Notes under the pieces: generated by a model
Seen by the model: only the letters and a program-made list of their open reading frames with translations
Database searches by the model: none
Told to the model about the DNA's origin: nothing
Shown: one piece after another, positions 5,659 through 61,041 of the stretch
How the letters are laid out: each line of letters begins with the position of its first letter
How positions within the stretch are numbered: position 1 is the stretch's first letter
Made by a program: the position numbers and the translations under genes
Source of the DNA: Klebsiella phage vB_KpnM_KB57
Sequence record: NC_028659.1
Direction: 5' to 3' (one strand)
Length of the DNA: 64,000 bases

Positions 5659-5975
5659 TTGATAACTTAATCATGCAGGCAGTTATGAGGGATGCTGAGG
5701 CGCTGGCTGTTCCCAGCGTCAAGGGTAAATTCTTAGTCGCCACAGGATTGTGGCGCATGGTTGAGTCTGGTGATGATTGCTATGTGATTTTCACTGATGA
5801 CTATACTGATCCGAATGTTGCATTCACCGTATTGCTTCTGGATAATTGCGAGCTGGTAGAAGGTGAGAAGCTGTTGATGTTAACAAGCGTTTTGCTAGAC
5901 ACTCAAGAATTCTCGCTTGTTGTCTTCAAGGACCAAAATGACTCGGAGGTAACCGATGAAGCTGATGTCGGTTGA
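5655..5975 (+). CDS. hypothetical protein
   Basis: 106-aa ORF, start overlaps previous stop. Confidence 0.45.
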   Translation: MIDNLIMQAVMRDAEALAVPSVKGKFLVATGLWRMVESGDDCYVIFTDDYTDPNVAFTVLLLDNCELVEGEKLLMLTSVLLDTQEFSLVVFKDQNDSEVTDEADVG

Positions 5976-6570: not shown

Positions 6571-6638
6571 AGAGTCGAGCATCCAAACCAAAAGCAAGGA
6601 AGAAGCCAGTAGTTGTACCATTAACACCGGAACTTTGG

Positions 6639-7109: not shown

Positions 7110-7293
7110 GTTCTTTTACAGAAATTGGCGAGGTAAGTGCGGATATCGTACTGTAGAAGAACCCGTCATGTGGTATGGGTCTACCCAGTATCACAAGAAC
7201 TCTCAATGGTTTATTAGAGGTTATGATCTCGATAAACAAGACTTTAGAGATTTCGCTGTGAATGATATCATTGAATTCGTCCGAGAGGTGTAA
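7090..7293 (+). CDS. hypothetical protein
   Basis: 67-aa ORF. Confidence 0.4.
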   Translation: MPKKPLKFFYRNWRGKCGYRTVEEPVMWYGSTQYHKNSQWFIRGYDLDKQDFRDFAVNDIIEFVREV

Positions 7294-8234: not shown

Positions 8235-8269
8235 CTTTAAGGGCTTCGGCCCTTTGCAAAGGAGATTCT

Positions 8270-8455
8270 ATGGGAAGAGAAATTGTTGTTAAAGTTCCTG
8301 ATGCCGCAGATGATGATTGGCTGCGAGAGCAGATCGAATCCTTACGTGTAAGGATCGAGGCTGTTGTAGAGGTTGAGGATAACGAAGAAAGCTTTAATAA
8401 GTTAGGGGCTTGCCTTGACATCATTGATGCACTTCAACAGTATACGGGGTACTAA
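8270..8455 (+). CDS. hypothetical small acidic protein
   Basis: ATG 8270 after AAAGGAG; the long upstream extension in the track is unlikely. Confidence 0.45.
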   Translation: MGREIVVKVPDAADDDWLREQIESLRVRIEAVVEVEDNEESFNKLGACLDIIDALQQYTGY

Positions 8456-9060
8456 TGGATATTATTGTTCTGAATGCTCCCCCACAGAGCGGTAAAGATG
8501 AGATTTCTGCGTACCTTTGTAAAGGTAACCCAAACATCAACCACGAAGAGGTAAAGGAACTCCTTTTTGAGGTTGCTATTCGTTCAGCGGGAATTTCCCG
8601 TGAGTTGTGGGATGCAATGTATACCCGTCGGTATAAAGAGATCCCAAGCCCATACCTGATGATTGATGGTGTGAATGTGTCGCCACGTCAGTGGATGATC
8701 CATTGCTCCGAAAAGGTAATCAAGCCATTGTTCGGCAAGTCAGCATTCGGTAAAGCTGCTGTGGAAAAGTTGAAGCAGACCTATGCAAATGACGAGGTGA
8801 TTGTATTCTCAGATGGTGGCTTTGCTGAGGAAATCAAAGAGTTGTCCGATTATGCATACTCGACTGGTGGTGAATTCTTCCTTGCGCGTATCCACCGAAA
8901 AGGTTATGATTGGGGGAATGACAGTCGTAACTGGTTATACCTTGACGGCATCCGAGGTCATGAACGTGACTTCGATAACAAAGAGGGCGGTATGAACGAC
9001 TGTGCAGAAGAGATCCTTGAGTGGGCAAGAACAATTAGCTATGGAGAAGACGATGCGTAA
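8455..9060 (+). CDS. deoxynucleoside monophosphate kinase-like P-loop kinase
   Basis: N-terminal IVLNAPPQSGKDE P-loop similar to the T4/T5 dNMP kinase start. Confidence 0.45.
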   Translation: MDIIVLNAPPQSGKDEISAYLCKGNPNINHEEVKELLFEVAIRSAGISRELWDAMYTRRYKEIPSPYLMIDGVNVSPRQWMIHCSEKVIKPLFGKSAFGKAAVEKLKQTYANDEVIVFSDGGFAEEIKELSDYAYSTGGEFFLARIHRKGYDWGNDSRNWLYLDGIRGHERDFDNKEGGMNDCAEEILEWARTISYGEDDA

Positions 9061-9655
9061 ACCGATGAATATAGGTATTGATGTCGACCTAACTTTTGTA
9101 GATTCTGGTACTCCTTGGCTTCATTGGTTGGAACTGATGTATGGCGTTAAGGCCGACTGTAGTTTGCCACCCCCGAACCCACAGGGGAAGACTTACTATA
9201 ATCTTTCTAAATATTTTCCACCCGCGAAGGTGAATCAATTACCTCCGTATGAGTTCTGGGAAGACCCTTATTTGTACGATAGGCTGAAACCACGCCCTGG
9301 CGCTGTTGAAGCAGTGGCCGCATTTGCTGAAGCTGGCCACTTCAACCAATTTGTATCATACTGCAAAAAGGGACACTTCTCGTCTAAGGTACGCTTCTTG
9401 AAACGTGAGACAGAAGAGTTCTTCAGCCTTGAGCCGGGTTCTGGTCATGGTTTTTATGCGACGAAGAACAAAGCCGGTCTTAAGCTTGAAGTCATTATTG
9501 ATGATCGCAATGAATTCCTGAATCAGTTCGGAGATGACGTACTTAAGATTAAGTTCTGGACGCCGTATGACCAATCTGAGGAGTTGAAAGTCTCGATTGA
9601 CCTTGAGACATCCGACTGGAGTCATATTCAGGACTTTATTCTGGACCTCTCCTGA
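9050..9655 (+). CDS. HAD-family 5'(3')-deoxyribonucleotidase
   Basis: IGIDVDLT HAD motif I (DxDxT), IIDD motif IV. Confidence 0.55.
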   Translation, partial: TMRKPMNIGIDVDLTFVDSGTPWLHWLELMYGVKADCSLPPPNPQGKTYYNLSKYFPPAKVNQLPPYEFWEDPYLYDRLKPRPGAVEAVAAFAEAGHFNQFVSYCKKGHFSSKVRFLKRETEEFFSLEPGSGHGFYATKNKAGLKLEVIIDDRNEFLNQFGDDVLKIKFWTPYDQSEELKVSIDLETSDWSHIQDFILDLS

Positions 9656-9855
9656 TGAAAAGGAATAGATGCGAGGGCGGTGATTTCATCGTCCGTCAGG
9701 GTAAGTGGTACGAAGTGTTCGATGAGAAGGATAATTTCGTGTACTCATTCAAAGCGACAAGCGACATGTGTAAGAATGTGCTTAACCGCTACTTGGTGTT
9801 CAAGGCAGACCTTGATCCAAATGTTAACTACAAAATTAAGAGGGTTGGAAAATGA
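9655..9855 (+). CDS. hypothetical protein
   Basis: 66-aa ORF. Confidence 0.4.
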   Translation: MKRNRCEGGDFIVRQGKWYEVFDEKDNFVYSFKATSDMCKNVLNRYLVFKADLDPNVNYKIKRVGK

Positions 9856-10169
9856 CAAAGGATGAAATGGCGGAACACATCCGTACACAAGCAACGGCTC
9901 GTGTGAATCGTGTTATTGAAGGGATGTTCCCAGGTACAGGACTGACTGCGGATATCATGGGAATTGATGCAGATTTTAATAAAGGTCTTTTTGATGACGT
10001 CTATCTGAACTTATTCTCTCTCAGCGAACTGGAAGAGATTATTACCCCCCAGATCAAATACAAAGGCCGTCTTGCTGAACTTGACCTGCTAGTTGAAACT
10101 GCCGTCGCCGCCCGTATGGCTGAAAACCAAGACAAGATTATTGAGAAATTAGGAGCAATGAGTGAGTAA
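9852..10169 (+). CDS. hypothetical protein
   Basis: 105-aa ORF. Confidence 0.45.
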   Translation: MTKDEMAEHIRTQATARVNRVIEGMFPGTGLTADIMGIDADFNKGLFDDVYLNLFSLSELEEIITPQIKYKGRLAELDLLVETAVAARMAENQDKIIEKLGAMSE

Positions 10170-11181
10170 TTTGATTTCCGTAAAAATTGTAGCTGACAGC
10201 ATTTCACCTTCTGGTTCTCGGATCACAACTTTCGAGCTTGAATATCCACGAATTATTCACAGTGAGTTGATGACTCACCGACTGTTAAGTAGGAATGCGA
10301 TGAGCAGTCGTGCTATTCCGATCAATAAGATGATCGACCAAGTACGTAATGACCCCGCAATGCCAGTTAAGTTCGGAAAGAATCAGCCGGGTATGCAGGA
10401 TGCTGGTGAACATGGGGCCTATGTAATGTACGAATGGGATGGCCTCACTTATGTGAATACCGCAGAAATGGCGTGGCGAGCTGCTGGACAATCTGCCTGT
10501 ATCTTTGCTGAGGCTTTCTCAAATGCGGGTTACCACAAACAGATTGCAAACCGCCTCCTAGAACCATACCAAAGGATGAAGACAGTTGTCACCGCTACAG
10601 ACTGGAATAACTTCTTCTGGTTGCGTGTTGATAAGGATGCTGATCCTACGATCTATGAACTAGCTAAGGCAATGAAAGAGGCTAGCGATAACTCTATCCC
10701 AGACCCTCTTGAACCGGGACAGTGGCATACACCATACGTTGACCACGTTTATGGCTTTGAAGATATCGACGACAAAGAGTGTGCAGTATTTGAAGGCTAT
10801 TGCGTTCTTGACGAAGAGAACAAGCCTGTAATGCTGACCCTAGAAGAGGCTTTGGCTGTTTCCGCATCTTGTTGTGCTCAGGTGTCTTATCGTGTTCTGA
10901 ATACGAGCAAAGAAAAGGCTCTGGATATCTATGAGAAGTTGGTGAGTGGTAACAAGGTTCATGCCTCTCCATTCGAACATCAGGCTACACCTATGGCAGA
11001 ATACAGGGAAATTGAGAACTCTGATTATTTAACTATCGGGCATATTAACTTTCCCCGTGATCCAAGCTCTTGGGAAGAAGGTATCACACACGCAGATCGT
11101 CAAGGGCAACTCTGGTCCGGTAACCTGCGTGGGTGGCGACAACATCGCCAGTTAGTGCCTGACAATGCAATTTCAGGTTGA
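10162..11181 (+). CDS. thyX: flavin-dependent thymidylate synthase ThyX
   Basis: THRLLSRNAMSSR fits the ThyX signature RHRxxSxxxxSxR. Confidence 0.7.
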   Translation: MSNLISVKIVADSISPSGSRITTFELEYPRIIHSELMTHRLLSRNAMSSRAIPINKMIDQVRNDPAMPVKFGKNQPGMQDAGEHGAYVMYEWDGLTYVNTAEMAWRAAGQSACIFAEAFSNAGYHKQIANRLLEPYQRMKTVVTATDWNNFFWLRVDKDADPTIYELAKAMKEASDNSIPDPLEPGQWHTPYVDHVYGFEDIDDKECAVFEGYCVLDEENKPVMLTLEEALAVSASCCAQVSYRVLNTSKEKALDIYEKLVSGNKVHASPFEHQATPMAEYREIENSDYLTIGHINFPRDPSSWEEGITHADRQGQLWSGNLRGWRQHRQLVPDNAISG

Positions 11182-11206
11182 CAAAGATATAGTTAATTCG
11201 TATCTT
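11178..11206 (+). promoter_or_regulatory. sigma70-type promoter TTGACA-17-TATCTT
   Basis: TTGACA 11178-11183 overlapping the thyX stop. Confidence 0.4.
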
Positions 11207-11261
11207 AGAAGCATATTAATTAGGGGCGATTTTGCCCCTTGTCAGGCAGAATGGAGATTAC

Positions 11262-11741
11262 ATGAGTAAAGAAAAACGCAAGCCACCCCAACACATTTCG
11301 GTCACCATTGACTTCCTGAGAACGGTCCCAGGGTTTGATGTCCAGAAAGATAATGACCTCCGCGCTGCCTTATACGCACTCGGTTTTCAGGTTACCGATA
11401 AAGATGGGAATCCTAAACACGTAACTGTGTTCCAAAACAAAAATGTAAGATGTGCCAACATGCCATCGACGTATCGTAAGACAATGATTTTTGTAGGAGA
11501 AATGCGACCTGATTATAAATACGCGAAGATATACAACGGTGTTGAAATCCTTGATGTAGGGGTTTATTCAGGCAGTGATATGGAATTTGTTTTAGATCTT
11601 CCTTACGACATCCCTGTAATTGAAAAAGTTAACACCCGCAAGTATACCAAGCGAGGTGATCGACCAGAGACATTTGAAATCACTTTCGATATTGAAGACG
11701 AAGCTCGTCTGGGCGATGTATTTGGCCTGGAGGACGAATGA
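11262..11741 (+). CDS. hypothetical protein
   Basis: ORF 11232-11741; ATG 11262 is the best start. Confidence 0.45.
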   Translation: MSKEKRKPPQHISVTIDFLRTVPGFDVQKDNDLRAALYALGFQVTDKDGNPKHVTVFQNKNVRCANMPSTYRKTMIFVGEMRPDYKYAKIYNGVEILDVGVYSGSDMEFVLDLPYDIPVIEKVNTRKYTKRGDRPETFEITFDIEDEARLGDVFGLEDE

Positions 11742-11968
11742 GTAAAGAAAAAACGAAATGGAAAGACCGTGGCTTCGATGATAAGCATCATTATGCCGGG
11801 TGGCTCTACTTCAACGATTTAACCGATGACAGTAAAATGTACGACGATGTTTACTATGATGAGTTTTCTGGTAAAATAGTTAACATCGTTGCGCCAGATC
11901 AAAACGAGAAAGACGATCAGGATGTTGACGAGGCAGATAAGTTTTTGTCTCAATTTGAAGAAGAATAA
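11738..11968 (+). CDS. hypothetical acidic protein
   Basis: 76-aa ORF. Confidence 0.45.
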   Translation: MSKEKTKWKDRGFDDKHHYAGWLYFNDLTDDSKMYDDVYYDEFSGKIVNIVAPDQNEKDDQDVDEADKFLSQFEEE

Positions 11969-11977
11969 GGGGAAAGT

Positions 11978-14287
11978 TTGATCAATACAGTTGTGAAGAG
12001 TGATGGCAGTGTGGTTCCATTTGAACCAGAACGTCTAAACAAGGCCGCTATCTTTGGTGATGACGGTAATGGTAACTGGTCGTATATCTCAATGGATGCA
12101 TATAAGCGACTGTATGACGGCTGCACCACTCGTGAAGTTAACCAGGCATTGATCGACGCCTGTGTGAGTCGTAAAGACGAAGCCCATTCACGGATGGCTG
12201 GGCGCGTCCTGATTGGACAAATCTACAAGGAAGCTTTTGGCGGATTTAAGAAAATCCCAAGCCTTACCGAGTTTTACCAGGACATGGTGATGCGTGGGTA
12301 CTGGGAAGAAATGGGCTATACTGGACCTGAGCTGTTAAACTTTGACCAAGTCATTGACCACAGTAAGGACCTGAGTTATGGGTATGCGGTTCTGAAACAG
12401 TTCCGGGATAAGTATGGCATCAAAGATAACATCAATGATATCCTGTTCGAATCCCCACAGATGATGTTCATGGGTATTGCTATGGCTGTTATGAAGAATA
12501 TGCCATTATCCCGTAGGAAGAATGACGTCATCAGACTGTATACGTATCTCTCTGATCTTAAGATCAATGCACCAACGCCGTACCTGAATGGGTTGCGTAC
12601 TGGTAAAACTGGATATGCATCCTGTTGCATTATCAAAGCAGACGATACAGCTAAAAGTATTGGTGTTGCTCGTGAGGTGGCATACACTATGACGGTAGCA
12701 CAAGCGGGGATTGGATATTATCTGTCTTCTCGTTCTATCGGCGATGGTGTTCGTGACAATACGATCAAGCATATGGGTAAACTCCCTTATTACCGTGGAA
12801 TTGATGTCGGTGTTAAGGAAAATCGCCAACAATCCCGTGGTGGTTCTGCAACGGTATCTTTCCTTGCGCTAGACCCGCAAGTTGAAGAACTGATGCGCCT
12901 TCGTAACCCGATGACGGTTACCTCAAAGCGTATAAATACGATGGACTATTCGATCGGTGTCAACCACTCGTTCATGAATCGAGTGGCTAAGAATCTGGAC
13001 TGGATGTTGGTGTCGTATAAGGATGCCCCTCAGCTGCATGAGGGTATGTTCCGAATGACAATGCAGGAGTTTGATGCTGAGGTTGCCCGTGTAGCAGCAG
13101 ATACGAAGATTCCAAAAACTTGGGTGAAGGCGCGTGATCTGGCAATGGAGCTGATCACTCAACGTGCAGAAACTGGTCGTCTTTATGTTTACTGGCCTGA
13201 CGAAATGAACCGTCATACGCCATTTCTTGAGACAATCTATTCATCTAACCTGTGTCAAGAAATCTGTCTACCAACAAAAGGGTATACAGATATGCGGAAC
13301 ATTTTCAACCCGACTGTCGATGATGGTGAAGTTGCATTGTGCTTTATCGCCTCTCTTGTTGCTGGTCGTATTTCCGAAGAAGAGTACGAGGATGTTGCTT
13401 ACTACACCGTCCTGATGATCGACAACGTTATGGATATCATGGATTATCCATATGAGAACATGAAGTACACAGCCGAATCTCGTCGTTCGATTGGTGTTGG
13501 CCTGACCAACCTTGCACACTACATCGCGAAACACAAAGTCGCGTATGGTTCTCCTGAGAGCAAACAGTTGGTTCACGATCTGGCAGAACTGCATAGCTTC
13601 AGCCTGCATAAGGCAAGTCTGCGACTGGCTAAAGAGCGTGGTGTTGCTCCGTGGATGAATAAGACTAAGTACCGCAGTTGGTTGCCTATCGATACCTATA
13701 ATAAGGCAGTTGATAGTGTTGTGAAGAATCCGAGCCTGAAGCAGGACTGGGAAACTTTGCGCCAGGAAATCATCGAAAATGGTGGTATCCGTAACAGTGT
13801 TCTGGAAGCTTATATGCCGAACGAAAGTTCATCATTGGCTACCAACACAACAAATGGCCTGTATCCGGTACGTGACCATGTGATCTTCAAGAAATCTCCT
13901 CAAGGCTCTGTGCTGTTTATCGTGCCCGAGTATGAAGAGCTGAAGGAATATTACACGTCGGCTTGGGATATCGATACGAATGACTTGATTGATATCTATG
14001 CAATCATTCAGAAGTTCGCAGGGCAAGCAATTAGTGCGGATCTTTACATCGACTATACCCAGTTACCTGATGGTAAGATTTCCATGAAACAACAACTGGG
14101 ATATCTGATCCGCGCCACGAAGATGGGGATGAAGACATGGTATTACCTGAACTCCAAGGTTGGGGCGGGAGACTCCCTCACTGAGGAACTTCATGCTAAA
14201 GCAAAAGCTGAGGAAGAGACAAGGGCTGTTGCACCACTTATCGCCGGGGATACTGAAGATCCTTATTGCGAAAGTTGTTCTTTATAA
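11978..14287 (+). CDS. nrdA: ribonucleoside-diphosphate reductase alpha subunit (class Ia)
   Basis: 769 aa; NLCQEICLPT active-site block; terminal Cys pair; TTG start. Confidence 0.9.
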   Translation: MINTVVKSDGSVVPFEPERLNKAAIFGDDGNGNWSYISMDAYKRLYDGCTTREVNQALIDACVSRKDEAHSRMAGRVLIGQIYKEAFGGFKKIPSLTEFYQDMVMRGYWEEMGYTGPELLNFDQVIDHSKDLSYGYAVLKQFRDKYGIKDNINDILFESPQMMFMGIAMAVMKNMPLSRRKNDVIRLYTYLSDLKINAPTPYLNGLRTGKTGYASCCIIKADDTAKSIGVAREVAYTMTVAQAGIGYYLSSRSIGDGVRDNTIKHMGKLPYYRGIDVGVKENRQQSRGGSATVSFLALDPQVEELMRLRNPMTVTSKRINTMDYSIGVNHSFMNRVAKNLDWMLVSYKDAPQLHEGMFRMTMQEFDAEVARVAADTKIPKTWVKARDLAMELITQRAETGRLYVYWPDEMNRHTPFLETIYSSNLCQEICLPTKGYTDMRNIFNPTVDDGEVALCFIASLVAGRISEEEYEDVAYYTVLMIDNVMDIMDYPYENMKYTAESRRSIGVGLTNLAHYIAKHKVAYGSPESKQLVHDLAELHSFSLHKASLRLAKERGVAPWMNKTKYRSWLPIDTYNKAVDSVVKNPSLKQDWETLRQEIIENGGIRNSVLEAYMPNESSSLATNTTNGLYPVRDHVIFKKSPQGSVLFIVPEYEELKEYYTSAWDIDTNDLIDIYAIIQKFAGQAISADLYIDYTQLPDGKISMKQQLGYLIRATKMGMKTWYYLNSKVGAGDSLTEELHAKAKAEEETRAVAPLIAGDTEDPYCESCSL

Positions 14288-50838: not shown

Positions 50839-51135
50839 TTACTTAATAGCCACCTCATCTTTGGTGATATACAGGCTGGTTTTTCCTGGTCGGTTGACTA
50901 CCTCTAGGTATCCCAACTCTTCTAATTTCCCCATAGACCGACGAACAGTCCTTTCAGAAACACCAACCTCTTCAGAGATAGTGGTGGTTGATTCGCAAAA
51001 CTCTGAACCTTTGCTGTGAAAGAACTGCCACCTGAATTTCAAGTACAGGTAAATGCGGATATCCGTTGAAGATAACTTCAGATTGGATATCATCCCATAA
51101 GAGCATAAAACACTGAAACTCTTAGAGATTCTCAT
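50839..51135 (-). CDS. HTH_36/winged-helix DNA-binding protein
   Basis: TISEEVGVSERTVRRSMGKLEELGYLEV helix-turn-helix. Confidence 0.5.
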   Translation of the reverse strand: MRISKSFSVLCSYGMISNLKLSSTDIRIYLYLKFRWQFFHSKGSEFCESTTTISEEVGVSERTVRRSMGKLEELGYLEVVNRPGKTSLYITKDEVAIK

Positions 51136-51539
51136 GTTTCTACCTCCAGATAATTATTCAAGTGATTTTTAACAACCTCTTGGGCATACTCTTGAGATGC
51201 ATCATTGTAGTGAAGAACAGCCAGATCACATCCAAGTTTGTGCAAACTTCTCTCGAATGGAGACAAGTGTGTCATCATAACTTCGACCAGACTTAGCTCT
51301 TCTTCTGTGATATGGAGGGGATCATCCGTGAAATCCCTGGAAATGATAATCTCCCTCTCACCACCTTCTCCGGCACCATATACCTCGACAATCTTCCTGT
51401 TACAGAAGATGTCATACCTGTAGCCAGTCAGATCATGACCATTTTGTACTTCAAAGTTCACAATGAGACAACAACCAAGCCCCATCAAGTAAACCTCAAA
51501 ATCTAAATTGTGGACAACTTTCTTATTTAAAGTGCTCAT
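51132..51539 (-). CDS. hypothetical protein
   Basis: 135-aa ORF. Confidence 0.45.
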   Translation of the reverse strand: MSTLNKKVVHNLDFEVYLMGLGCCLIVNFEVQNGHDLTGYRYDIFCNRKIVEVYGAGEGGEREIIISRDFTDDPLHITEEELSLVEVMMTHLSPFERSLHKLGCDLAVLHYNDASQEYAQEVVKNHLNNYLEVET

Positions 51540-52950
51540 CCAAATCTACCGCCTTCCCGAATGGAGCTAACCAACCCTTACGACCACCGCAGATAACCCA
51601 GAGAGTGTTGTACTTACGTCCCCAGCTTGAGCCACGATGTCTCAGGTCCTCGATGTAACCATCTGTGAAGATTATAACCTCTTTTGCCTTAGGAATAAAC
51701 TCATCGATGTACTCAAAAGCACATGCCGCAGTCGTTCCACCAGTCGATGTAACTCTGTAATCCAGAATTTCCTTTATGTTGTCCTGTGTGTACACGTTGA
51801 CGTTGCCAACTTGGGTTGACCAACAGAACAATGTGATACGGAAACATTGGTACAGGGTGCTCAAAGCGATGATCTCATTAAAGATACGTGTCATTGTTTG
51901 ACGAGAGATAGAACCTGAAACGTCAAAACCGATTACGATATCTACAGTTTCTGTTCGTTTTCTACCCGGCATAACCATGAACTGTTTCTTAGTTAAAGCA
52001 CCGTGATCACGAAGAACTTTTGTCATCCCGCCGGACCGACGACCTAAAACCCGATAAGTACGATCAGATTTAACACGAGAAATCATCCGTTGCTTAATTA
52101 TTTGCAGGTAATTAATCTTCGGTTTACCTTTTTGTGCGATTAATTCTCTGGCTTCTTTCGGTCCTTCACCGCCAGCGGCTTTCATAGCGGCGTCAATCAT
52201 GTCCTCAGACCAAGACATATCCTCATCTTCCTGATCAGGAGACTTCTGTGGGTGTGGGTCTGTATACCCCAGAATATCTAGGTCTTTATCATAATCCCCG
52301 ATGTGCGCCCCCAGCGGCTTACCTTTACTATCCCCGGCTTCACCAGGCAAAAGAGCATAAATTTCTTCAGCCGTTTTCCCCTCGTACTGATAGTCACAAT
52401 AGCAGTAAGCAAGGAATCCAAATTCTTTTGACTTATCAAACACTTGTCTATGAGTGAACCATTTCAAACTCTCGGCTTTCTGGCCCAACTCCTTGACCAG
52501 ATCAGTGTTGATATAGTGATCGGCTGCGATATTGAAACGTCTACGGTCAAATGTTTTCCCACGAGACATGTGGTCGTTGGTGACATGGCGGACCTCATGC
52601 ATTAGAATAAATACAATTTCCTTCATGGTTTTTTGACGATAGAAGACATCAACATATTCTTTATATTCATCTTTTTGCTGTTGTGTCATCATCGGATGCT
52701 TGTCAATACGAGCAAAGACTTTTTTCTTGCGATCAACAGGCATACCCATAATGAACTCTGGGTTGAAGTATAGGTTGCGATGATCAGTCGCTGCGGTTGG
52801 AAGCCATGCACAGTCAACTATCAGCGGCATACCGCTTAATAGCGTCCCGTAGAATGGTCGATTAGTAAGTAAAGCGATGCGGGCAGACTGAACTTTCTTC
52901 AGTGCTTCATCAGCCAGTTCCATAATGCTTTCTTTTTCATCTGTATACAT
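51523..52950 (-). CDS. DUF2201-type putative metallopeptidase (HExxH) + VWA domain protein
   Basis: ILMHEVRHV HExxH-like block; FDVSGSI MIDAS motif; ATG at 52950 after GGAGATAAG. Confidence 0.6.
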   Translation of the reverse strand: MYTDEKESIMELADEALKKVQSARIALLTNRPFYGTLLSGMPLIVDCAWLPTAATDHRNLYFNPEFIMGMPVDRKKKVFARIDKHPMMTQQQKDEYKEYVDVFYRQKTMKEIVFILMHEVRHVTNDHMSRGKTFDRRRFNIAADHYINTDLVKELGQKAESLKWFTHRQVFDKSKEFGFLAYCYCDYQYEGKTAEEIYALLPGEAGDSKGKPLGAHIGDYDKDLDILGYTDPHPQKSPDQEDEDMSWSEDMIDAAMKAAGGEGPKEARELIAQKGKPKINYLQIIKQRMISRVKSDRTYRVLGRRSGGMTKVLRDHGALTKKQFMVMPGRKRTETVDIVIGFDVSGSISRQTMTRIFNEIIALSTLYQCFRITLFCWSTQVGNVNVYTQDNIKEILDYRVTSTGGTTAACAFEYIDEFIPKAKEVIIFTDGYIEDLRHRGSSWGRKYNTLWVICGGRKGWLAPFGKAVDLDEHFK

Positions 52951-52999
52951 TCTTATCTCCAAGAAAAAAGGCCATCAGTTACGATGGCCTTATTATAGG

Positions 53000-53260
53000 T
53001 TAATTCATCACCCTTTGCAATGCAATTTGGGGTAAAAATTCATCTATCCCTTCAATCCTGAAACCCCACGCTAATTGTGGGCCAGGCGCTCCCGGAAGGT
53101 GAGGAACAGCAAACAAGACGATCCCATCAATAGCTCCTCGAATCGCGTTCTCTGTGAAAGTCTCTACCAGATCCCCGAAACTAAGACCCGGCCTGAAGCC
53201 AGCATTCAGCATTTTTTGCTCTGGCGGGGATGCTGGCCTGCCCAAGATATCTTCGTACAT
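53000..53260 (-). CDS. hypothetical protein
   Basis: 86-aa ORF. Confidence 0.4.
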   Translation of the reverse strand: MYEDILGRPASPPEQKMLNAGFRPGLSFGDLVETFTENAIRGAIDGIVLFAVPHLPGAPGPQLAWGFRIEGIDEFLPQIALQRVMN

Positions 53261-53460
53261 TAGGTGTTCTCCTTTATTTCAACAACCTCAATGCCGCCTG
53301 TATTATCGCCTTGGTAGGTTACTTCGACATACTTTTCACCTTTATTGTATCGTATTTTGAACTCTCTTTTCTTCTTAGATAGCTCTTTTGAGTATACAAC
53401 TTCGGAGTAGTCAAAATGTCCAAGGCGATCCAGTGCGAATCGCTCAAGGATCTTATCCAT
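53260..53460 (-). CDS. hypothetical protein
   Basis: 66-aa ORF. Confidence 0.4.
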   Translation of the reverse strand: MDKILERFALDRLGHFDYSEVVYSKELSKKKREFKIRYNKGEKYVEVTYQGDNTGGIEVVEIKENT

Positions 53461-53474
53461 TTACACCACCTTGT

Positions 53475-54371
53475 TCAGCATTGCTGTAACTTTAGGTAGC
53501 TAAGACCCGTCTGGATCATCAGTTGAGTCATAGCCGTTTCCATTTTCTTGGAGACGATGATGAAATTATCTTTGGCAAAGCCAATGTTAAGATCCAGAAT
53601 CAGAATGGATTTAGGCTCACCAGTAAGCTTCTCCCCTGTCATTGCACAGGTGCTGCGAATATATTTGGCCTTGAACTGAGCATATGTCACACTTACTTTC
53701 ATACCGACATTTGCAAAAGTATTGCAGTAATTTGCATAGGCAAGCGCAACAGCTACATCTTCTGGCAGTGCAACACTGATAGCTTCTTTCGGTTCAGCCT
53801 CCACTTCCACAGGTGCAGTGGTTTCTTCTGCCGCATGGGGTTGTTTGTGTTCGTGTTCAGCAAGCTCTTTGTAGTCGGTGTTGTGATTCTTTTCTACTTT
53901 TGCCATGTGTTCTTTCATGTCCATTTTTGTCTCCTGTTGTGGGATATATTTAGTTTTCAGTTTTTCGAGATGGTCTTTAGACATATTCAGTATCATAGCC
54001 TGCACAATCTCACGGTCTAGCGGATCAATTATAGTGATGGCTGTTTTCTTGTCAACCAAACGATCTTTCAATTCATTGGCTCTTTGCAAGACAACGCATA
54101 CATTTCCACGAACATAACCTTTCTTATCGTCAATGCGCTCAACTGTCGGATACAATGGGTCTTTTTCGCCATGTACCGACCTCGTGCTAAAGTTCATATT
54201 GGTGTAGTCGCACGGGCCGATGCCCAAAAGCTTTTCTCCCATCATGAACCAGTCATCAAGGGTCAAGGAGAATTCTAAACCCCGTTTCTTTGTGCGTTCT
54301 ACCTTTTTATGATACCGTTCTTCTAGACTTTTAATCTCACTGTTGGTAAATTTCTTTTTAATATCAAACAT
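53475..54371 (-). CDS. HNH_3-like homing endonuclease (putative)
   Basis: ERIDDKKGYVRGNVCVVLQRANELK resembles the HNH_3 His/Asn box. Confidence 0.35.
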   Translation of the reverse strand: MFDIKKKFTNSEIKSLEERYHKKVERTKKRGLEFSLTLDDWFMMGEKLLGIGPCDYTNMNFSTRSVHGEKDPLYPTVERIDDKKGYVRGNVCVVLQRANELKDRLVDKKTAITIIDPLDREIVQAMILNMSKDHLEKLKTKYIPQQETKMDMKEHMAKVEKNHNTDYKELAEHEHKQPHAAEETTAPVEVEAEPKEAISVALPEDVAVALAYANYCNTFANVGMKVSVTYAQFKAKYIRSTCAMTGEKLTGEPKSILILDLNIGFAKDNFIIVSKKMETAMTQLMIQTGLSYLKLQQC

Positions 54372-54441
54372 TTCTAACTCCTTGGGTCTTACCCGTTCTT
54401 AGTAAGGTGATTATCACCATTCTGAAAAGAGTTGTCAACCC

Positions 54442-54470
54442 TTGATTTCTAAAAAGTGGCGGTGTATGTT
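54442..54470 (+). promoter_or_regulatory. promoter TTGATT-17-TATGTT
   Basis: upstream of the operon 54505-58268. Confidence 0.45.
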
Positions 54471-54504
54471 TGTTCATTATTTGTATAAGAGGGCAAGTGA
54501 GATT

Positions 54505-55482
54505 ATGAGCAAGGTAGATATTAATGTAAAACCAAACTATACTTGGAATGAGGAGCGGGATTTCATAGATAAGTTGTTACAAGGGAAGCAGGCTGCTCAA
54601 GAGAGATTTCTTTCAACTTTTGAGAGGGACAGATCTGTTGACAACCCCATCACCCGCTTTAGAGATTATCTCCAAGGGGTACAGGATTCAAACCCCATAT
54701 TGGACATATTTTTGTCATGTCTCCATAAACTTCCGGCGCATGGTGGCCCTTTTTATTGGCAATGGAATTCCGGTGATGTCCGGGAGTATGGTTCTGATAT
54801 GAGTCAGAAGCTAAATGTTTCACGTATGGAAATAGGCCACCAATCACATATTACGGGTGGTGACCCTTGGACACATCGCTTTGTAGAAACAATCTCCATC
54901 GATATTTATGGTCACGGTTGCGGTGAAGCATTTCTTGGTGGGTTCTGCAATTTTAACTACCGTACTAAGTATTTTCTTGAGTGTGTAAAGCAGCTTTTGG
55001 TGGGGATGTCACACAGGGATGCTCTCCGTTTGGCTGTCGAATACACCGGTTCCCCTGTCCAATCTTGGATGGCCCATCATGGGGAGAGATTCACCCTTAA
55101 AAATGTAAGCCTCATCAGTGGTGATTTGGTTCTTTACTCTGACTATCTTGAGCCTTCAGCGTTCGATCGTGTTTGTAGCCAACTGAATCATTCTGTTATC
55201 AACATCATGAACAGAAAGATCGCTAATAAGGCACGTAAGGCAATGTTCGTTTGTTCCCTGAAAGAAACAATGTTCCACTTGGAATATGACCCCAAGCTAC
55301 AGAGTATGATGGAGGGGGACTCCCCAACAGAAGAAGAACTGATGATGATGTCGGTCGCAGGGTATGAAGATGAATTTTGGCTTGACAACGTAAAATCTTT
55401 CGATAGACTGAACATAAAACCCTTTAACCTAGAGGAAGCTGTCAAATGGTATCAACAGACAAGAGTTGTATTCAAGCTTTAA
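54505..55482 (+). CDS. hypothetical protein (326 aa)
   Basis: ATG 54505 within track ORF 54442-55482. Confidence 0.5.
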   Translation: MSKVDINVKPNYTWNEERDFIDKLLQGKQAAQERFLSTFERDRSVDNPITRFRDYLQGVQDSNPILDIFLSCLHKLPAHGGPFYWQWNSGDVREYGSDMSQKLNVSRMEIGHQSHITGGDPWTHRFVETISIDIYGHGCGEAFLGGFCNFNYRTKYFLECVKQLLVGMSHRDALRLAVEYTGSPVQSWMAHHGERFTLKNVSLISGDLVLYSDYLEPSAFDRVCSQLNHSVINIMNRKIANKARKAMFVCSLKETMFHLEYDPKLQSMMEGDSPTEEELMMMSVAGYEDEFWLDNVKSFDRLNIKPFNLEEAVKWYQQTRVVFKL

Positions 55483-55955
55483 GTCCGGCCCAGGAATTGG
55501 CGCTGGCGATCAAAATTGCAGCAGAAGCCCACCTGAATCAGAAAGATAAGGGTGGTAACCCATACATCCTTCACCCGCTGAAGGTAATGCACTATCTGAA
55601 GACTGATGATTTTCAGCTTATGGCTATCGCCGCGCTTCATGATGTGGTTGAAGACACCGATGTTACCGCTGCGGATCTGGTTCTGCTAGGCTTCTCGAAC
55701 CGTGTGAAGGATGCTGTGGTTCTTCTGACGAAAACCCCTAATCAGACACCGGAAGAGTATTTTAACCGCCTGGCTCAAAACTATGATGCGGTACGTGTGA
55801 AGCTTGCAGACCTGCGCCATAACTCCGATGTTCGTCGTCTGAAAGGTCTGACAGATAAGGATTTGTTACGTGTTCGTAAGTATCATGACATGTATCTTCG
55901 TCTGACAAAGATGAAAGAACACCACGAAGCGATCAACATGTTGGCTACATTATGA
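55446..55955 (+). CDS. small alarmone hydrolase (RelA/SpoT-type HD (p)ppGpp hydrolase)
   Basis: NPYILHPLKV...ALHDVVEDT matches the HD hydrolase HPL / HDVVEDT signature. Confidence 0.7.
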   Translation: MVSTDKSCIQALSPAQELALAIKIAAEAHLNQKDKGGNPYILHPLKVMHYLKTDDFQLMAIAALHDVVEDTDVTAADLVLLGFSNRVKDAVVLLTKTPNQTPEEYFNRLAQNYDAVRVKLADLRHNSDVRRLKGLTDKDLLRVRKYHDMYLRLTKMKEHHEAINMLATL

Positions 55956-56137
55956 TCATTACGAAAAAATTAAATGGCCTTCCTTGGTTCGAAATGGAAA
56001 TTCCTGACAAGGTTGTAGTATGTGCGAGATGTTTTTCGACTTATAACCTGAAAGATGCTCCTGTAAAGGCCCCCGATCAGCTTCGGATTAAGGAACCTTG
56101 TTGCCCGAACTGTGGTTTTAAATGGTATTTGTCATGA
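55952..56137 (+). CDS. zinc-ribbon small protein
   Basis: CARC...CCPNCG. Confidence 0.45.
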   Translation: MIITKKLNGLPWFEMEIPDKVVVCARCFSTYNLKDAPVKAPDQLRIKEPCCPNCGFKWYLS

Positions 56138-56158
56138 ATTTCTTTAAGGAGATTTGAT

Positions 56159-56647
56159 ATGAAAAGCAAAACAAGTCAACAACTTTATGAAGAACATCTT
56201 GAGAAAGGTACGCCTATTGAGAACCTTCTCAGGGTTATGGTCAACAGAGCTGATCGTTACCAGAACTATTACAACAGTATGAAAAATCGTGTGGAAGTTT
56301 ACGAAAAGCAATATGACGAGCTACTTCGTAATACAGGCCGACTTATTACTACCAAAGTGGACCATATAGCACAAGACACATGGGGGTCATACGTATGGTA
56401 CAGGCATAACAAATACCGCTGGAATGGTAAATACTGGTATAAAACAGATGATGAAGGGCCGCATTACAACGCAAGGCACTATCATGGTAAATTTACTGTG
56501 GATATTATTCTTTCAGAAGAAGATATGCCGGAAGTTTTCATTGGTAAATGCACGGGCAGCGTCTTCGGAGAAAAGGTGATCACAGCTAAAGGGCATATGA
56601 TCGGGTACGGTGATGAATTTGAATTGAGGAAAATAACCAATGTCTAA
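56159..56647 (+). CDS. hypothetical protein
   Basis: 162-aa ORF with strong RBS. Confidence 0.5.
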   Translation: MKSKTSQQLYEEHLEKGTPIENLLRVMVNRADRYQNYYNSMKNRVEVYEKQYDELLRNTGRLITTKVDHIAQDTWGSYVWYRHNKYRWNGKYWYKTDDEGPHYNARHYHGKFTVDIILSEEDMPEVFIGKCTGSVFGEKVITAKGHMIGYGDEFELRKITNV

Positions 56648-57008
56648 CTGGAAAACTGCTCTGGATCTTCGCGACATCTGGTCTAAAAGAAATGGTGAAT
56701 GCGGTAGAGAAGACTGGACAGATAAGACGGTGCATGAGCTTGCTAAAGAGATAGCCCGTCGTCTTGAACGGAAATTCCCTACTCGGCTAGTACATCGTTA
56801 TGAATGTGATAATGTTTTGGTAGATTTAATCGGCGATTTCCGTAATGTTCCTACACATCAAGATTGGCTAGCCTCTATTGCAGAATGTGAAAATGATGGG
56901 TATGATGCTGATCCTATTCGCCATTATACACCCTTGCGGGAATTCAACGACATCATGAAAGATTTTTATGATTGGTGTGATGAAAATCGCGTATGGGTGG
57001 ATAAATAA
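56640..57008 (+). CDS. hypothetical protein
   Basis: 122-aa ORF. Confidence 0.45.
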   Translation: MSNWKTALDLRDIWSKRNGECGREDWTDKTVHELAKEIARRLERKFPTRLVHRYECDNVLVDLIGDFRNVPTHQDWLASIAECENDGYDADPIRHYTPLREFNDIMKDFYDWCDENRVWVDK

Positions 57009-57071
57009 TCATTGCAATGGGGGAGGATCAAATGTATCCTGCTCCCGAATTTCATTTACAGGAGACAAATA

Positions 57072-58268
57072 ATGTCAAGTCGCAACATCTTTTCTGGTAA
57101 CTGGATCACTTTGCGAGATCTTCCACCACTGGTGCAATTTTGCCAGCGTCACAAACGTTCACTGATGATCTTCGGTGGGGCAGGTATTGGTAAAAGTCAA
57201 GCTGTGAAGCAAATTGCGGATTCTCTTTTCGGGCCTGGTGATAACCTGGTAGACTTCCGCTTGGCTGATAAAGATAACACTGACCTCACCGGGGTGCAGA
57301 TTCCATACACCGATGACAATGGTGTTACTCGCACAGTGTACGCCTTGCCGGATTTCTGGCCCCGTGATCCTAACTGGAAAGGTATTGTGTTCCTTGACGA
57401 GCTTCTCCACGCAGAACCTTACCTTCAGAAACTAGCATTCCAAATCATGCTGGACCGTCGAATCGGGACCTACCAGTTCCCTGAAGGGGCTGTACTGGTT
57501 GCTGCGGGTAACCGTGCTGGGGATGGTACTGCCGTGACTGCACTGGAAGCTCCTTTGGCTAACCGTATGATGCTGGTAGAGCTTACCTATAGCGCATCGG
57601 TGTTCATCGAAGACTATGCCATGCAGAACGGTATTCATTCGTCAATCATTGGTTTTCTGTCGCGTAAGAACAGTGCTATTGAAAACTATGAAGAAATGCT
57701 GGATATCGGGTGTCCTTCTTTCGCCACACCGCGTACTTTAACTTACGCCAGTGATGTATTGTACGATTACGATGCTAATTTGCTGCCTGCCAACCTAGCT
57801 AAAGTGGCCCTTCAGGGCTTCATTGGCACACCTTTAATGGCTGAACTGTGGGCATACCACACCAAGATTCGTAATATGGTTCCGATCGAAGATGTTATGA
57901 ACGGTACTGCCCAATATCCTGGAGACCTTCCATCAGACAGTCTGTGGATTTTGGGTTCAGAAGGCGCCATTTGGTTGCGTAAGGCTATTGCAGATACCAA
58001 TTACACGGATGACCAGATTATTGAATTCTCTGGAAACTTCCTTCAGTATCTTTACGACCACTTTATGGACCAGAACCGAGACTTCGTAAGCTCTATCTTC
58101 CTGTCGTTCATTAAGGAAAATGCGTTTGGTAAAGCTTTGTTGACCACTGCGAGCAACCGTGACAAGCTTCCTGCACGTTTGTTGAAGGCAAAGCCTATCA
58201 TAATGAAAATTATGGCAGACTTCCAGGTCAACTACGCTGAAGATATTAAGCTTATTGAAGGAAAATAA
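57072..58268 (+). CDS. MoxR-like AAA+ ATPase (AAA_5)
   Basis: Walker A MIFGGAGIGKSQ, Walker B VFLDELLHAEP; ATG 57072 after AGGAGA. Confidence 0.7.
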   Translation: MSSRNIFSGNWITLRDLPPLVQFCQRHKRSLMIFGGAGIGKSQAVKQIADSLFGPGDNLVDFRLADKDNTDLTGVQIPYTDDNGVTRTVYALPDFWPRDPNWKGIVFLDELLHAEPYLQKLAFQIMLDRRIGTYQFPEGAVLVAAGNRAGDGTAVTALEAPLANRMMLVELTYSASVFIEDYAMQNGIHSSIIGFLSRKNSAIENYEEMLDIGCPSFATPRTLTYASDVLYDYDANLLPANLAKVALQGFIGTPLMAELWAYHTKIRNMVPIEDVMNGTAQYPGDLPSDSLWILGSEGAIWLRKAIADTNYTDDQIIEFSGNFLQYLYDHFMDQNRDFVSSIFLSFIKENAFGKALLTTASNRDKLPARLLKAKPIIMKIMADFQVNYAEDIKLIEGK

Positions 58269-58270
58269 TA

Positions 58271-58299
58271 TTGACAGCTCCTCATGGGGCTGTTATGCT
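58271..58299 (+). promoter_or_regulatory. promoter TTGACA-17-TATGCT with TTATGTA box
   Basis: near-identical extended motif to the promoter at 35671. Confidence 0.55.
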
Positions 58300-58326
58300 T
58301 TATGTATCAAACATAAGGGGAAATAC

Positions 58327-58522
58327 CGTGTATAAATTAACTTGGGAACAAGCAAAGCAGGCCATGCGTGAGGGCAAGCGTGTCCGCAATAAATGGTTTT
58401 CCGGCGATGAGTTCTTTGAAATGAAGGATGGAAAAATTGTTTGTGAAATGGGATACAACATGGCTAAGTGGTATCGCGGAGAATCTTGGCAGGACTGCTG
58501 GGGATGGAGTGTGATCGAATGA
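58327..58522 (+). CDS. DUF2829 (Tad2-like) small protein
   Basis: KLTWEQAKQAMREGKRVRNKWFSGDEFFEMKDGKIV fits the DUF2829 N-terminal pattern; GTG start after AAGGGG, downstream of the promoter. Confidence 0.45.
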
Positions 58523-58704
58523 TCAAAAGCTATCATCGATGGTTAACGATTCAAGAAAAGAATATACTCCGTGGCGTTCCTGGGTATAGCCCCAGCACTG
58601 ATGACATTCTTGATAGAATGGTTGAATTTTTTAAAGAGCCACGAGAACACCTCAAAAATGTTCTTGGAGCTTGGGATGGCACACCAGAGAGTATAAACGA
58701 ATGA
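58519..58704 (+). CDS. hypothetical protein
   Basis: ATG 58519. Confidence 0.4.
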   Translation: MIKSYHRWLTIQEKNILRGVPGYSPSTDDILDRMVEFFKEPREHLKNVLGAWDGTPESINE

Positions 58705-58853
58705 TCTACAAGAACCAATTCAGAAACACCTGGCGCAAGTTTGTTAACGGTAAAGGCTATGTGTCTGGTGACCAAGGCCTCACCTGGACAGAAAACGGTG
58801 CCCCTGAGGACTTGATCAAGCGATTACCTTATTACGTGGAGGTTAAAGTATGA
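58701..58853 (+). CDS. hypothetical small protein
   Basis: ATG 58701 coupled to the upstream stop. Confidence 0.35.
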   Translation: MIYKNQFRNTWRKFVNGKGYVSGDQGLTWTENGAPEDLIKRLPYYVEVKV

Positions 58854-59131
58854 GACGTTCACCAGGTTTTGGTTATATCTACATTCCCGATTTTACTGGG
58901 GAAGAGCGCCTTGTTAGGATCAGTGACCTTGACATCAGTGATATTGAAAACCAGGCACGATATGGACAGGCTGAAAAAGAGTGTTATCTTCGTACAGACA
59001 ATGGCTTCTGTCAGTCAGGCTGGACATCTGGCATAACTGCAATGGAAGTTCTTGAGAAGATTGCTAAACACGATAAAGATAATCTTGGAGCCTTCCGTGA
59101 TTATGCCATCGTAATCGGATTGTCCTCATGA
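58850..59131 (+). CDS. hypothetical protein
   Basis: 93-aa ORF. Confidence 0.45.
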   Translation: MRRSPGFGYIYIPDFTGEERLVRISDLDISDIENQARYGQAEKECYLRTDNGFCQSGWTSGITAMEVLEKIAKHDKDNLGAFRDYAIVIGLSS

Positions 59132-60270: not shown

Positions 60271-60433
60271 AATGACGAAACACTACAGCGCCCATCCTGA
60301 AGAGCCACGTTCTGGTGATATTCTTGAAGTGGTGAGTGAGAAATATAATGGCTCTTTCCTTGACCACTATATGTGTGAGTGGAAGGGGATGGATATCGTT
60401 GTCTATCCTGATGAATGTGAGGAAGTGCGATGA
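60260..60433 (+). CDS. hypothetical small protein
   Basis: ATG 60260 within track ORF 60188-60433. Confidence 0.4.
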   Translation: MKVKMTKHYSAHPEEPRSGDILEVVSEKYNGSFLDHYMCEWKGMDIVVYPDECEEVR

Positions 60434-61041
60434 GCTTCAAATACAAAGTTGGTGACCTGATCGAGGCTGCAAAAAGCGGTGAGATTAATGTCTTTGGACA
60501 TGGCTGTAACTGTTTTTGCACAATGGGGAGCGGAATCGCCCCGTTGATCAAAGAAGCATTCCCTAAGATGTACGCTGCCGATCTGAAAACTGAGAAGGGC
60601 GATAAGACCAAGCTGGGAACCTGTACAATGGCCTTTTTGAATGATGGATCTCTCGCAGGATTTAATCTGTATTCGCAATACGGCTATAATCGCCGTAAAC
60701 AGGGCCTCAGGGACCTTGATTACAATGCCCTGTACGATTCGATGGTTGAGATGAAAAAGCTCTTACAGAGCTATACAGACGGCCCTATGGACACCTATCG
60801 AATCGGGTTCCCTAAAATCGGTGCTGGCCTTGCAGGCGGTGACTGGAACGTCATCGAGGCAATGATCAAATCAATCTTCTTTGATTGTGATGTGACAGTT
60901 TATGTCTTGAAAGAATGGGAAATCCCTGGTTACTACCCTCCAGACGACGGCCCTCTGACATCAGAACAGATCGCTGCCATTCGGGAAATGACAAAATGTG
61001 GATTATCCACAGGGGGGACTGGATTATCGTGGTTAAATTGA
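60430..61041 (+). CDS. macro domain (ADP-ribose binding/hydrolase-like) protein
   Basis: NVFGHGCNCFCTMGSGIAPLIKEAFP and GFPKIGAGLAGGDW resemble macro-domain glycine-rich loops. Confidence 0.5.
   Translation: MSFKYKVGDLIEAAKSGEINVFGHGCNCFCTMGSGIAPLIKEAFPKMYAADLKTEKGDKTKLGTCTMAFLNDGSLAGFNLYSQYGYNRRKQGLRDLDYNALYDSMVEMKKLLQSYTDGPMDTYRIGFPKIGAGLAGGDWNVIEAMIKSIFFDCDVTVYVLKEWEIPGYYPPDDGPLTSEQIAAIREMTKCGLSTGGTGLSWLN

Follow-up and report, generated by a model that had tools for sequence, protein, structure and literature searches.

The divergent gene junction of Klebsiella phage vB_KpnM_KB57 was analysed in a 64,000-nt stretch of its genome (NC_028659.1; this whole stretch is called the window below), at positions 54442-58268 and at the divergent gene 51523-52950. 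We read the region as the beginning of the early rightward transcription unit in a Mydovirus, carrying two functionally separable modules that are neighbours by descent. The first is a small alarmone hydrolase (SAH), which is probably an adenosine 3'-pyrophosphohydrolase directed against toxic small alarmone synthetase (toxSAS) defences and not a ppGpp hydrolase. The second is a MoxR-like AAA+ ATPase with its cognate partner, a 475-aa zincin metallopeptidase with a VWA domain that is encoded on the other arm. Taken in all its parts as one explanation, this reading is favoured with moderate confidence; gene identities, motifs, fold, pairing statistics and synteny were established in the analysis. 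An earlier note on the same DNA had proposed that the region links hydrolysis of ppGpp to a MoxR/VWA pair.

Identity and Probable Specificity of the Alarmone Hydrolase

The best solved relative of the window hydrolase is Aph1 of Bacteroides caccae, deposited as a "(p)ppApp hydrolase" (PDB 7smg, E 3e-28; Ahmad et al., 2023, PMC10083569). The HD and ED core of the RelA/SpoT enzymes is present, H65, D66, E69 and D70 aligning with Aph1 H53, D54, E57 and D58. Pfam HD_4 scored 23.3 bits, under its cut-off of 27.2. Six residues of Aph1 (D24, R96, D116, R119, K133 and Y134) set the Aph enzymes apart from ppGpp hydrolases, and Aph1 carrying D24R and R119A gains ppGpp cleavage; D24 and R119 were thereby shown to set the adenosine specificity (PMC10083569). 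The window hydrolase shares the HD motif with Aph1 and has all six signature residues, as D34, R108, D128, R131, K145 and Y146. Elsewhere the signature was found at 6/6 in SSBI34, 5/6 in PVP-SE1 and in PcCB7V, and 4/6 in an environmental locus (L014); PVP-SE1 gp220 has G at the position equivalent to R96.

The window hydrolase is 88% identical over its full length to PVP-SE1 gp220, which occupies the same genomic position. The PVP-SE1 SAH, which belongs to the PbcSpo subfamily, neutralises all five toxSAS tested, namely CapRel, PhRel2, FaRel2, PhRel and FaRel (Jimmy et al., 2020, PMC7229694, Table 1), and the same authors proposed that incoming phages bypass alarmone-based defence by means of such hydrolases. 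In the same subfamily, ATfaRel restored aminoacylation of tRNA pyrophosphorylated at its CCA end (10.1101/2021.04.30.441581). CapRel systems defend enterobacteria, and a homologue is found in K. pneumoniae (PMC9712102). The probable adenosine specificity is read from the Aph1 match, the complete signature and the identity to the toxSAS-neutralising PVP-SE1 protein. The term "ppGpp hydrolase" used in the earlier note finds no support, since the complete (p)ppApp-specificity signature of Aph1 is present (PMC10083569). Its suggestion of a host-manipulation or counter-defence module keeps an experimental basis for the hydrolase, through the PVP-SE1 relative (PMC7229694); the proposed coupling to the MoxR/VWA pair is unsupported (see below). 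Two points weigh against so specific an assignment. The PVP-SE1 data come from co-expression, not infection, and concern toxSAS neutralisation only, not nucleotide specificity. The experiments also concern relatives, and the window's own proteins are known from sequence.

Aph1 is an immunity protein of a temperate phage, encoded beside a (p)ppApp synthetase toxin that is fused to MuF, whereas the window belongs to a lytic-type myovirus, and no synthetase toxin was seen next to the window hydrolase. For these two reasons host toxSAS are the likely targets. ARAGORN, run on the 64-kb window with tRNA genes considered as a second anti-toxSAS route, found zero tRNA genes.

The ATPase and Its Zincin-VWA Partner

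The ATPase has a Walker A motif (GGAGIGKS) at residue 35 and a Walker B motif (IVFLDE) at residue 105. Residues K41, D109, E110, N147, R165 and R221, which represent the Walker, sensor 1 and arginine positions, are invariant among 40 homologues; in a wider set of relatives Walker A was present in 102/104 and Walker B in 104/104. Homologues matched at E ~1e-36 carry the Pfam domains AAA_3, AAA_5 and AAA, 10 carry bpMoxR, and a family profile built from the 40 sequences matched the AAA modules of midasin at 1.5e-22. An AlphaFold2 (AF2) model was confident (mean predicted local distance difference test, pLDDT, 88.9). Its top Foldseek matches were NorQ, which was solved with the VWA domain of NorD, and the MoxR protein CbbQ2. 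In the model, the nearest solved structures are thus MoxR proteins, and the predicted fold has the helix-2 beta-hairpin insert and the pre-sensor-1 hairpin.

Against this class assignment, the window ATPase itself reaches no Pfam model, even at E 10, and its membership in a profile family is transitive rather than direct. The transitive sequence evidence and the predicted fold together support a MoxR-like ATPase. The MoxR type proposed before is accordingly sustained by the domains of the homologues, the midasin profile match and the NorQ/CbbQ2 fold; the narrower label AAA_5 applies to homologues and not to the window protein, which has no Pfam match. Orthologues in PVP-SE1, rV5, Mangalyan and UPEC06 are already named "MoxR ATPase" in GenBank. 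The SSBI34 ATPase is labelled "ribosomal protein uS19".

The 475-aa protein matched Pfam DUF2201_N, a putative metallopeptidase, with 81.6 bits (cut-off 23.2) and DUF2201 ("VWA-like") with 41.3 bits (cut-off 26.4); VWA_CoxE gave 24.3 bits, slightly under its cut-off. HEVRH lies at residue 118 and DVSGS at residue 343, so that both halves of the VWA/metallopeptidase protein that had been proposed at 51523-52950 are present. HExxH and DxSGS were retained in 84/84 near-full-length homologues (25-100% identity), and therefore proteolysis and binding at the metal ion-dependent adhesion site (MIDAS) both appear to be under selection. A literature search for DUF2201 found no experimental paper. Zincin residues 110-162 also matched the NCBIfam model of the phage-exclusion protease Lit with 22 bits (E 7e-5; cut-off 274), which is probably generic HExxH similarity only. 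In PHROG the zincin-VWA family (phrog_1314) is named "HNH endonuclease".

We examined the pairing of the two proteins in 80 IMG/VR loci that were chosen solely for an ATPase homologue. A VWA homologue lay 3' of the ATPase on the same strand in 65 of these, with a median inter-alignment gap of 394 nt. In 13 of the 15 other loci the contig ends within <1.5 kb, so that 67 loci are testable and 65 of them are paired. Certrevirus PcCB7V, SSBI34, UPEC06, the jumbo phage fHe-Yen9-04 and the N4-like phage LUZ7 likewise have the ATPase and VWA genes side by side, and in LUZ7 these correspond to the gp24-like and gp25-like genes; the VWA homologue is directly 3' of the ATPase homologue in the loci L083, L085, L086, L087 and L168. 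A tblastn search matched 798 phage records for the ATPase and 592 for the VWA protein, with the same host genera and parallel distributions. From the adjacency in testable loci and named phages and from the parallel distributions we conclude that the 475-aa protein is the cognate partner of the ATPase. The earlier suggestion that the MoxR ATPase has its VWA partner 4 kb away is borne out by this pairing. None of the environmental loci, when checked for N4-likeness, had a LUZ7-type helicase or polymerase near the pair.

The pair in the window is split across the divergent promoter region, the VWA gene lying 4 kb from the ATPase on the opposite strand. The VWA gene has likewise been relocated to the leftward arm in Mydovirus, Seunavirus, Henunavirus-type and rV5-type genomes. 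Jumbo phages of group 2.2 have the same families, MoxR AAA+ and VWA with an N-terminal metallopeptidase, and the same domain architecture of the VWA partner (Iyer et al., 2021, PMC7824862). The N4-like gp24 and gp25 also belong to these two families (PMC4193335), and tblastn ties the window proteins to gp24-like, gp25-like and jumbo-phage genes. In contrast to the adjacent and co-oriented genes of the jumbo and N4-like phages, the VWA gene is on the opposite arm, 4 kb off, in the window, PVP-SE1 and rV5-type phages. The ATPase of Vequintavirinae is also longer (398 aa vs. a median of ~370 aa, measured on stop-to-stop open reading frames, ORFs).

More distant systems include NorQ/NorD and CbbQ/CbbO (PMC13036017; PDB 9qh6, 6l1q), with only 16-21% sequence identity. 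Neither NorD nor CbbO has a peptidase domain, and their roles lie in metal insertion or rubisco activation, whereas the phage partner has a conserved HExxH zincin, which implies proteolysis by sequence. By description, the pair can also be likened to the viral MoxR-type ATPase with a VWA protein of Acidianus two-tailed virus (cited in PMC7824862 and PMC7159879), an archaeal virus in which the peptidase domain is absent and the setting is extracellular tail development. The statement in the earlier note that no characterised function could be named for such a set of genes is not supported: an orthologue of the hydrolase was tested in PVP-SE1 (PMC7229694), and the pair has been described in jumbo phages (PMC7824862) and among the core genes of N4-like phages (PMC4193335).

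Relation Between the Hydrolase and the Pair

The hydrolase was absent from 79 of the 80 ATPase-centred loci. Conversely, neither gene of the pair was present over up to 10 kb in 63 of 80 hydrolase-centred loci. Phages of the rV5 type have the split pair and no hydrolase, and the N4-like and jumbo phages also keep the pair with the hydrolase absent. T4-like Aeromonas phages and Streptococcus prophages account for many of the hydrolase carriers, and the host distribution of the hydrolase differs from that of the ATPase. The genes between hydrolase and ATPase vary even among phages with 99-100% identical ATPases. Consistent co-inheritance of the hydrolase with the pair was thus not found outside Vequintavirinae. 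Inside this subfamily, the hydrolase and ATPase are syntenic in every sampled clade except the rV5 type, so it cannot be said that relatives never inherit them together, the outcome that the earlier note had named as refuting its proposal. Functional coupling of hydrolase and ATPase, as that note had put forward, is not supported, the modules being independent in most phages and the intervening genes variable. We read the linkage as shared residence at the head of early units, inherited within Vequintavirinae and occasionally convergent.

Two candidates from this comparison were rejected. UPEC06 was considered as a case of unlinked hydrolase and ATPase genes; its hydrolase gene is colinear with one further gene, the MoxR ATPase gene and that of the VWA protein, and its 55-85 kb region is a structural module. 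A 413-aa protein of PcCB7V was considered as a "Rosetta stone" fusion; its N-terminal 240 aa are HNH homing-endonuclease-like (phrog_953, 2.7e-73) and not homologous to the first gene of the rightward arm (gene 1). In this protein (L083, 5533-6774; annotated "GTP pyrophosphokinase") the HNH-like N-terminus is fused in frame to the hydrolase domain. More HNH genes lie between the hydrolase, ATPase and VWA genes of PcCB7V, and homing endonucleases appear to have invaded the cluster repeatedly. The L014 locus (IMGVR_UViG_3300048042_000013, 5345-12137) encodes, in this order, a 1249-aa protein with a T7 gp0.7-like kinase domain on the minus strand, the hydrolase, a MoxR-like ATPase, a homing endonuclease and two N6-methyltransferases. 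Over 10 kb, L014 has no VWA partner; its closest ATPase relative, L067 (76% identity), has one.

Organization of the Divergent Junction

Over positions 51000-59000 the window has 96-98% identity with Proteus phage Mydo and with the Klebsiella phages KpS8, KPP-1 and BIS47. On this sequence similarity the phage is placed in Vequintavirinae, genus Mydovirus, which belongs to the rV5-like group of myophages with genomes of ~145 kb. The leftward gene block ends at 54371 and the rightward block starts from ~54505 (Table 1). The six plus-strand genes are all there, as is the divergent 475-aa gene, and each has homologues, in agreement with the six co-oriented genes described before. The plus-strand genes at 54505-58268 are tightly packed or overlapping; the block is not closed at 58268 and extends on to the end of the window.

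Table 1. Genes and predicted transcription signals around the divergent junction (window coordinates).
Feature	Coordinates	Strand	Basis
Zincin metallopeptidase + VWA (MIDAS) protein, 475 aa	51523..52950	-	Pfam DUF2201_N, DUF2201; HEVRH, DVSGS
Promoter-like TTGCAA-17-TATAAT (53020->52992), then G+C hairpin with T run (52991->52968)	52968..53020	-	5' of the ribosome-binding site (RBS) of the VWA gene
Srd-like anti-sigma / HNH-like protein that opens the leftward arm (listed for context)	53475..54371	-	phrog_3118, phrog_1400 "Srd anti-sigma factor"
Strong leftward promoter TTGACA-17-GATAAT, placed back to back with the rightward candidate	54438->54410	-	11/12 matches
Rightward sigma-70-like promoter candidate TTGATT-17-TATGTT	54442..54470	+	Conserved hexamers in relatives
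Gene 1, 325-aa lineage-restricted protein (phrog_10920)	54505..55482	+	ATG 54505, RBS AAGAGGG 54488-54494
Small alarmone hydrolase, Aph1/PbcSpo type (probable adenosine 3'-pyrophosphohydrolase), 169 aa	55446..55955	+	HPL...HDVVEDT; 7smg match; Aph signature
Zinc ribbon Phage_zn_bind_2, 61 aa	55952..56137	+	Pfam PF23903, E 2e-21
162-aa ORFan, phrog_13383	56159..56647	+	PHROGs match only
122-aa ORFan, phrog_6318, rV5 gp006 homologue	56640..57008	+	PHROGs match; PVP-SE1 gp223 noted similar to rv5_gp006
MoxR-like AAA+ ATPase, 398 aa	57072..58268	+	Walker motifs, homologues, fold
Hairpin directly 3' of the ATPase stop, with overlapping promoter-like TTGACA-17-TATGCT (58271-58299)	58272..58295	+	Sequence scan

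The rightward promoter candidate has 8/12 consensus matches, which is under the threshold of the promoter scan, and it was not called. An intergenic alignment of seven genomes showed both rightward hexamers kept in six, the window and its five relatives Mydo, Ro1, 4MG, PVP-SE1 and L095, with a variable spacer; the seventh genome, of the rV5 type, has TTGACT-17-TATAGT at the equivalent place. We accept 54442-54470 as the probable start of the rightward unit, so the promoter proposed there before stands on its conservation in relatives and not on its consensus score. The TGTCAAC of the leftward promoter is invariant across the alignment, and the PVP-SE1 record annotates a promoter at the site equivalent to 54410-54438. 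No terminator-like site was found inside 54500-58268 on the plus strand. The six genes may form a single transcription unit from one promoter.

The hairpin 3' of the ATPase, ACAGCTCC-TCAT-GGGGCTGT, has a weak T tail, and termination there is therefore uncertain; together with the promoter-like site it could mark a boundary between transcription units. On the minus strand, the hairpin at 52991->52968 has a 10-bp G+C stem and a T6 run, and is followed by a GGAG RBS and the ATG of the VWA gene. By sequence, 52968-53020 would be where the terminator of the upstream Srd unit and a promoter belonging to the VWA gene itself overlap. Because of this terminator-like hairpin and separate promoter, the VWA gene may not share a transcript with the rest of the leftward arm. 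The equivalent of the 53475-54371 gene is labelled anti-sigma factor in PVP-SE1 and Mangalyan. A literature search for rV5-type transcriptomes and PVP-SE1 proteomics found nothing usable.

Gene 1 and the Small Genes

The most likely start codon of gene 1 is ATG 54505; the TTG at 54442 marks a mechanical ORF start only and uses the same bases as the proposed -35 hexamer. The 326-aa first gene reported earlier is thus real, a lineage-restricted ORFan, and most likely 325 aa long. Its 3' end shares 37 nt with the start of the hydrolase gene. No Pfam, NCBIfam or PADLOC match was found for gene 1. A word-indexed search gave 15 homologues, and a deep profile search of 1.84 billion proteins gave nine representatives, all of the same lineage. 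An AF2 model from the 15-sequence alignment was poor (pLDDT 48.8). Comparison of gene 1 with the first plus-arm gene of rV5-type phages by hhalign gave 8% probability. The names "thymidylate kinase" (PHROG phrog_10920) and "fucosyltransferase" (GenBank) were considered for gene 1 and rejected as unsupported.

The start of the zinc ribbon gene overlaps the hydrolase stop (ATGA). The zinc ribbon is missing from some close relatives (L091, L094), as is the 162-aa ORFan from the close relative L090. In three IMG/VR loci (L100, L101 and L104) a zinc-ribbon homologue was observed at <= ~1.7 kb from the hydrolase with no ATPase or VWA gene nearby, and the zinc ribbon may move together with the hydrolase and not the MoxR gene. 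Both ORFans are phage-only. The 122-aa protein is the sole small gene that stays beside the ATPase, just 5' of it, in Mydo-, Seuna- and rV5-type genomes. PADLOC and NCBIfam searches with all eight proteins gave nothing relevant, the weak Lit-like match of the zincin (22 bits) being the one match.

Further along the rightward arm, at 60430-61041 (+), the window encodes a protein of 203 aa with a Macro domain (22.6 bits in Pfam against a cut-off of 22), for which the Mydo and PVP-SE1 records give only the name "phosphatase". In relatives, the corresponding genome region has genes annotated as RNA ligase 2, a MazG-like pyrophosphatase, Sir2 and NAD salvage, and these annotations near the Macro gene suggest a gene island for takeover and counter-defence.

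Discussion

We infer a scheme for the two modules, and the inference extends to the specificity of the hydrolase, the formation of a complex, proteolysis, timing and module independence. The conserved sigma-70-like promoter, back to back with the leftward one, would drive the rightward early unit. In the first module, the hydrolase would remove the 3'-pyrophosphate from adenosine nucleotides ((pp)pApp) and, judged from its subfamily, may also remove pyrophosphate from the CCA end of tRNA. It would in this way reverse the action of toxSAS abortive-infection toxins of the CapRel, FaRel and PhRel types carried by enterobacterial hosts. In the second module, by analogy with NorQ/NorD and other MoxR/VWA pairs (PMC13036017), an ATPase hexamer would grip the zincin-VWA protein. 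The MIDAS site of the VWA domain may capture an acidic residue of a target protein, ATP hydrolysis would remodel the bound target, and the fused zincin could then cleave it. Judged from gene context, the pair probably acts in early or mid-infection on a non-virion complex of phage or host, and not in late morphogenesis.

Two alternatives concern the function of the single modules. Iyer et al. proposed virion assembly with proteolytic processing for the jumbo-phage pair (PMC7824862); on that view the window pair would be an assembly chaperone-protease for structural proteins and its early-region position incidental. A part in tail development has been shown for the system of the archaeal Acidianus two-tailed virus. 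The location of the pair after virion structural genes and a head-completion gene in fHe-Yen9-04 weighs for this and against a non-virion role. The non-virion role also has against it the limited reach of our survey of pair neighbours in 27 environmental loci, in which only ~20 of 108 flanking ORFs were identifiable. The core status of the pair in N4-like phages would also fit a role in the phage's own development (PMC4193335). However, N4 gp24 and gp25, two of the 14 N4-like core genes, are middle and not late transcripts (PMC4193335), and the pair's surroundings in Vequintavirinae, LUZ7 and L014 are early, replication or takeover genes. The identifiable neighbours in the survey were thymidylate synthase, dihydrofolate reductase, RNase H, methyltransferases, radical SAM, Macro and ADP-ribosyltransferase (ART) domains; no capsid, portal, terminase or tail protein was among them. 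We consider a virion assembly role unlikely, though it is the strongest of the competing explanations. A good deal less probable is a true (p)ppGpp hydrolase that lowers host ppGpp and suppresses the stringent response in infection. The protein does fall within the RelA/SpoT HD superfamily (it matched Rel and SpoT hydrolase domains with E values of 1e-11 to 1e-8, and TIGR00691 at E 1e-15), many GenBank records label its relatives "guanosine-3',5'-bis(diphosphate) 3'-pyrophosphohydrolase", and modest ppGpp activity was seen in 2 of 12 Aph homologues assayed (PMC10083569). The match to Aph1 is nevertheless 17 orders of magnitude stronger than that to any ppGpp hydrolase, wild-type Aph1, whose six signature residues are all kept, has no detectable ppGpp hydrolysis (PMC10083569), and the guanine-stacking arginine pair of TtRel, R43 and R44, is replaced by D34 and K35.

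A third alternative joins the modules, with hydrolase and MoxR/VWA-zincin as one counter-defence or host-manipulation machine in which the pair might capture and cleave toxSAS or another defence effector and the hydrolase reverse its products. Several observations speak for it and against neighbourhood by descent alone. In the sampled Vequintavirinae clades except the rV5 type, the hydrolase lies at the start of the rightward arm or close to it, followed 0.4-2.2 kb downstream by the ATPase, and this synteny holds with an inter-clade ATPase identity of only 34-37% and variable intervening genes. The hydrolase also lies just 5' of the ATPase in two unrelated ATPase clades (L014 and L126) whose nearest relatives are without it, a recurrence that could reflect a real hydrolase-ATPase partnership. 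Both arms begin at back-to-back promoters. On the other side stand the separability of the modules, including the rV5-type, N4-like and jumbo phages that keep the pair alone, and the finding that the PVP-SE1 hydrolase neutralises toxSAS alone in E. coli (PMC7229694). The VWA gene apparently has its own promoter behind a terminator-like hairpin, and membership in the N4-like core gene set is untypical for accessory anti-defence genes (PMC4193335). We find a joint machine improbable. The same low probability is given to a more elaborate form, a two-layer counter-defence island in which an early MoxR/VWA-zincin protease captures defence or takeover targets, possibly toxSAS effectors, and the hydrolase clears the damage done, with the back-to-back early promoters driving the whole.

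All components of the region have been described in the literature, one of them with an experimentally tested orthologue. Four points only are new here: the split layout of the pair, the subfamily-wide synteny of the hydrolase, its probable adenosine specificity and the annotation corrections. The value of the result is mainly corrective, for rv5-like phages that are widely considered for therapy. The hydrolase is probably no ppGpp hydrolase, and probably no "GTP pyrophosphokinase" or generic phosphohydrolase either. The names "HNH endonuclease" and "thymidylate kinase" are carried in the RefSeq records of Mydo, KpS8 and BIS47 (L001 is RefSeq NC_048741), and the first of these names stands on the gene for the MoxR ATPase's zincin-VWA partner. 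The MoxR/VWA-zincin pair belongs to the N4-like core and is found, with strictly conserved catalytic motifs, in hundreds of phage genomes; the split arrangement in the Mydovirus lineage gives two separately addressable genes for knock-down.

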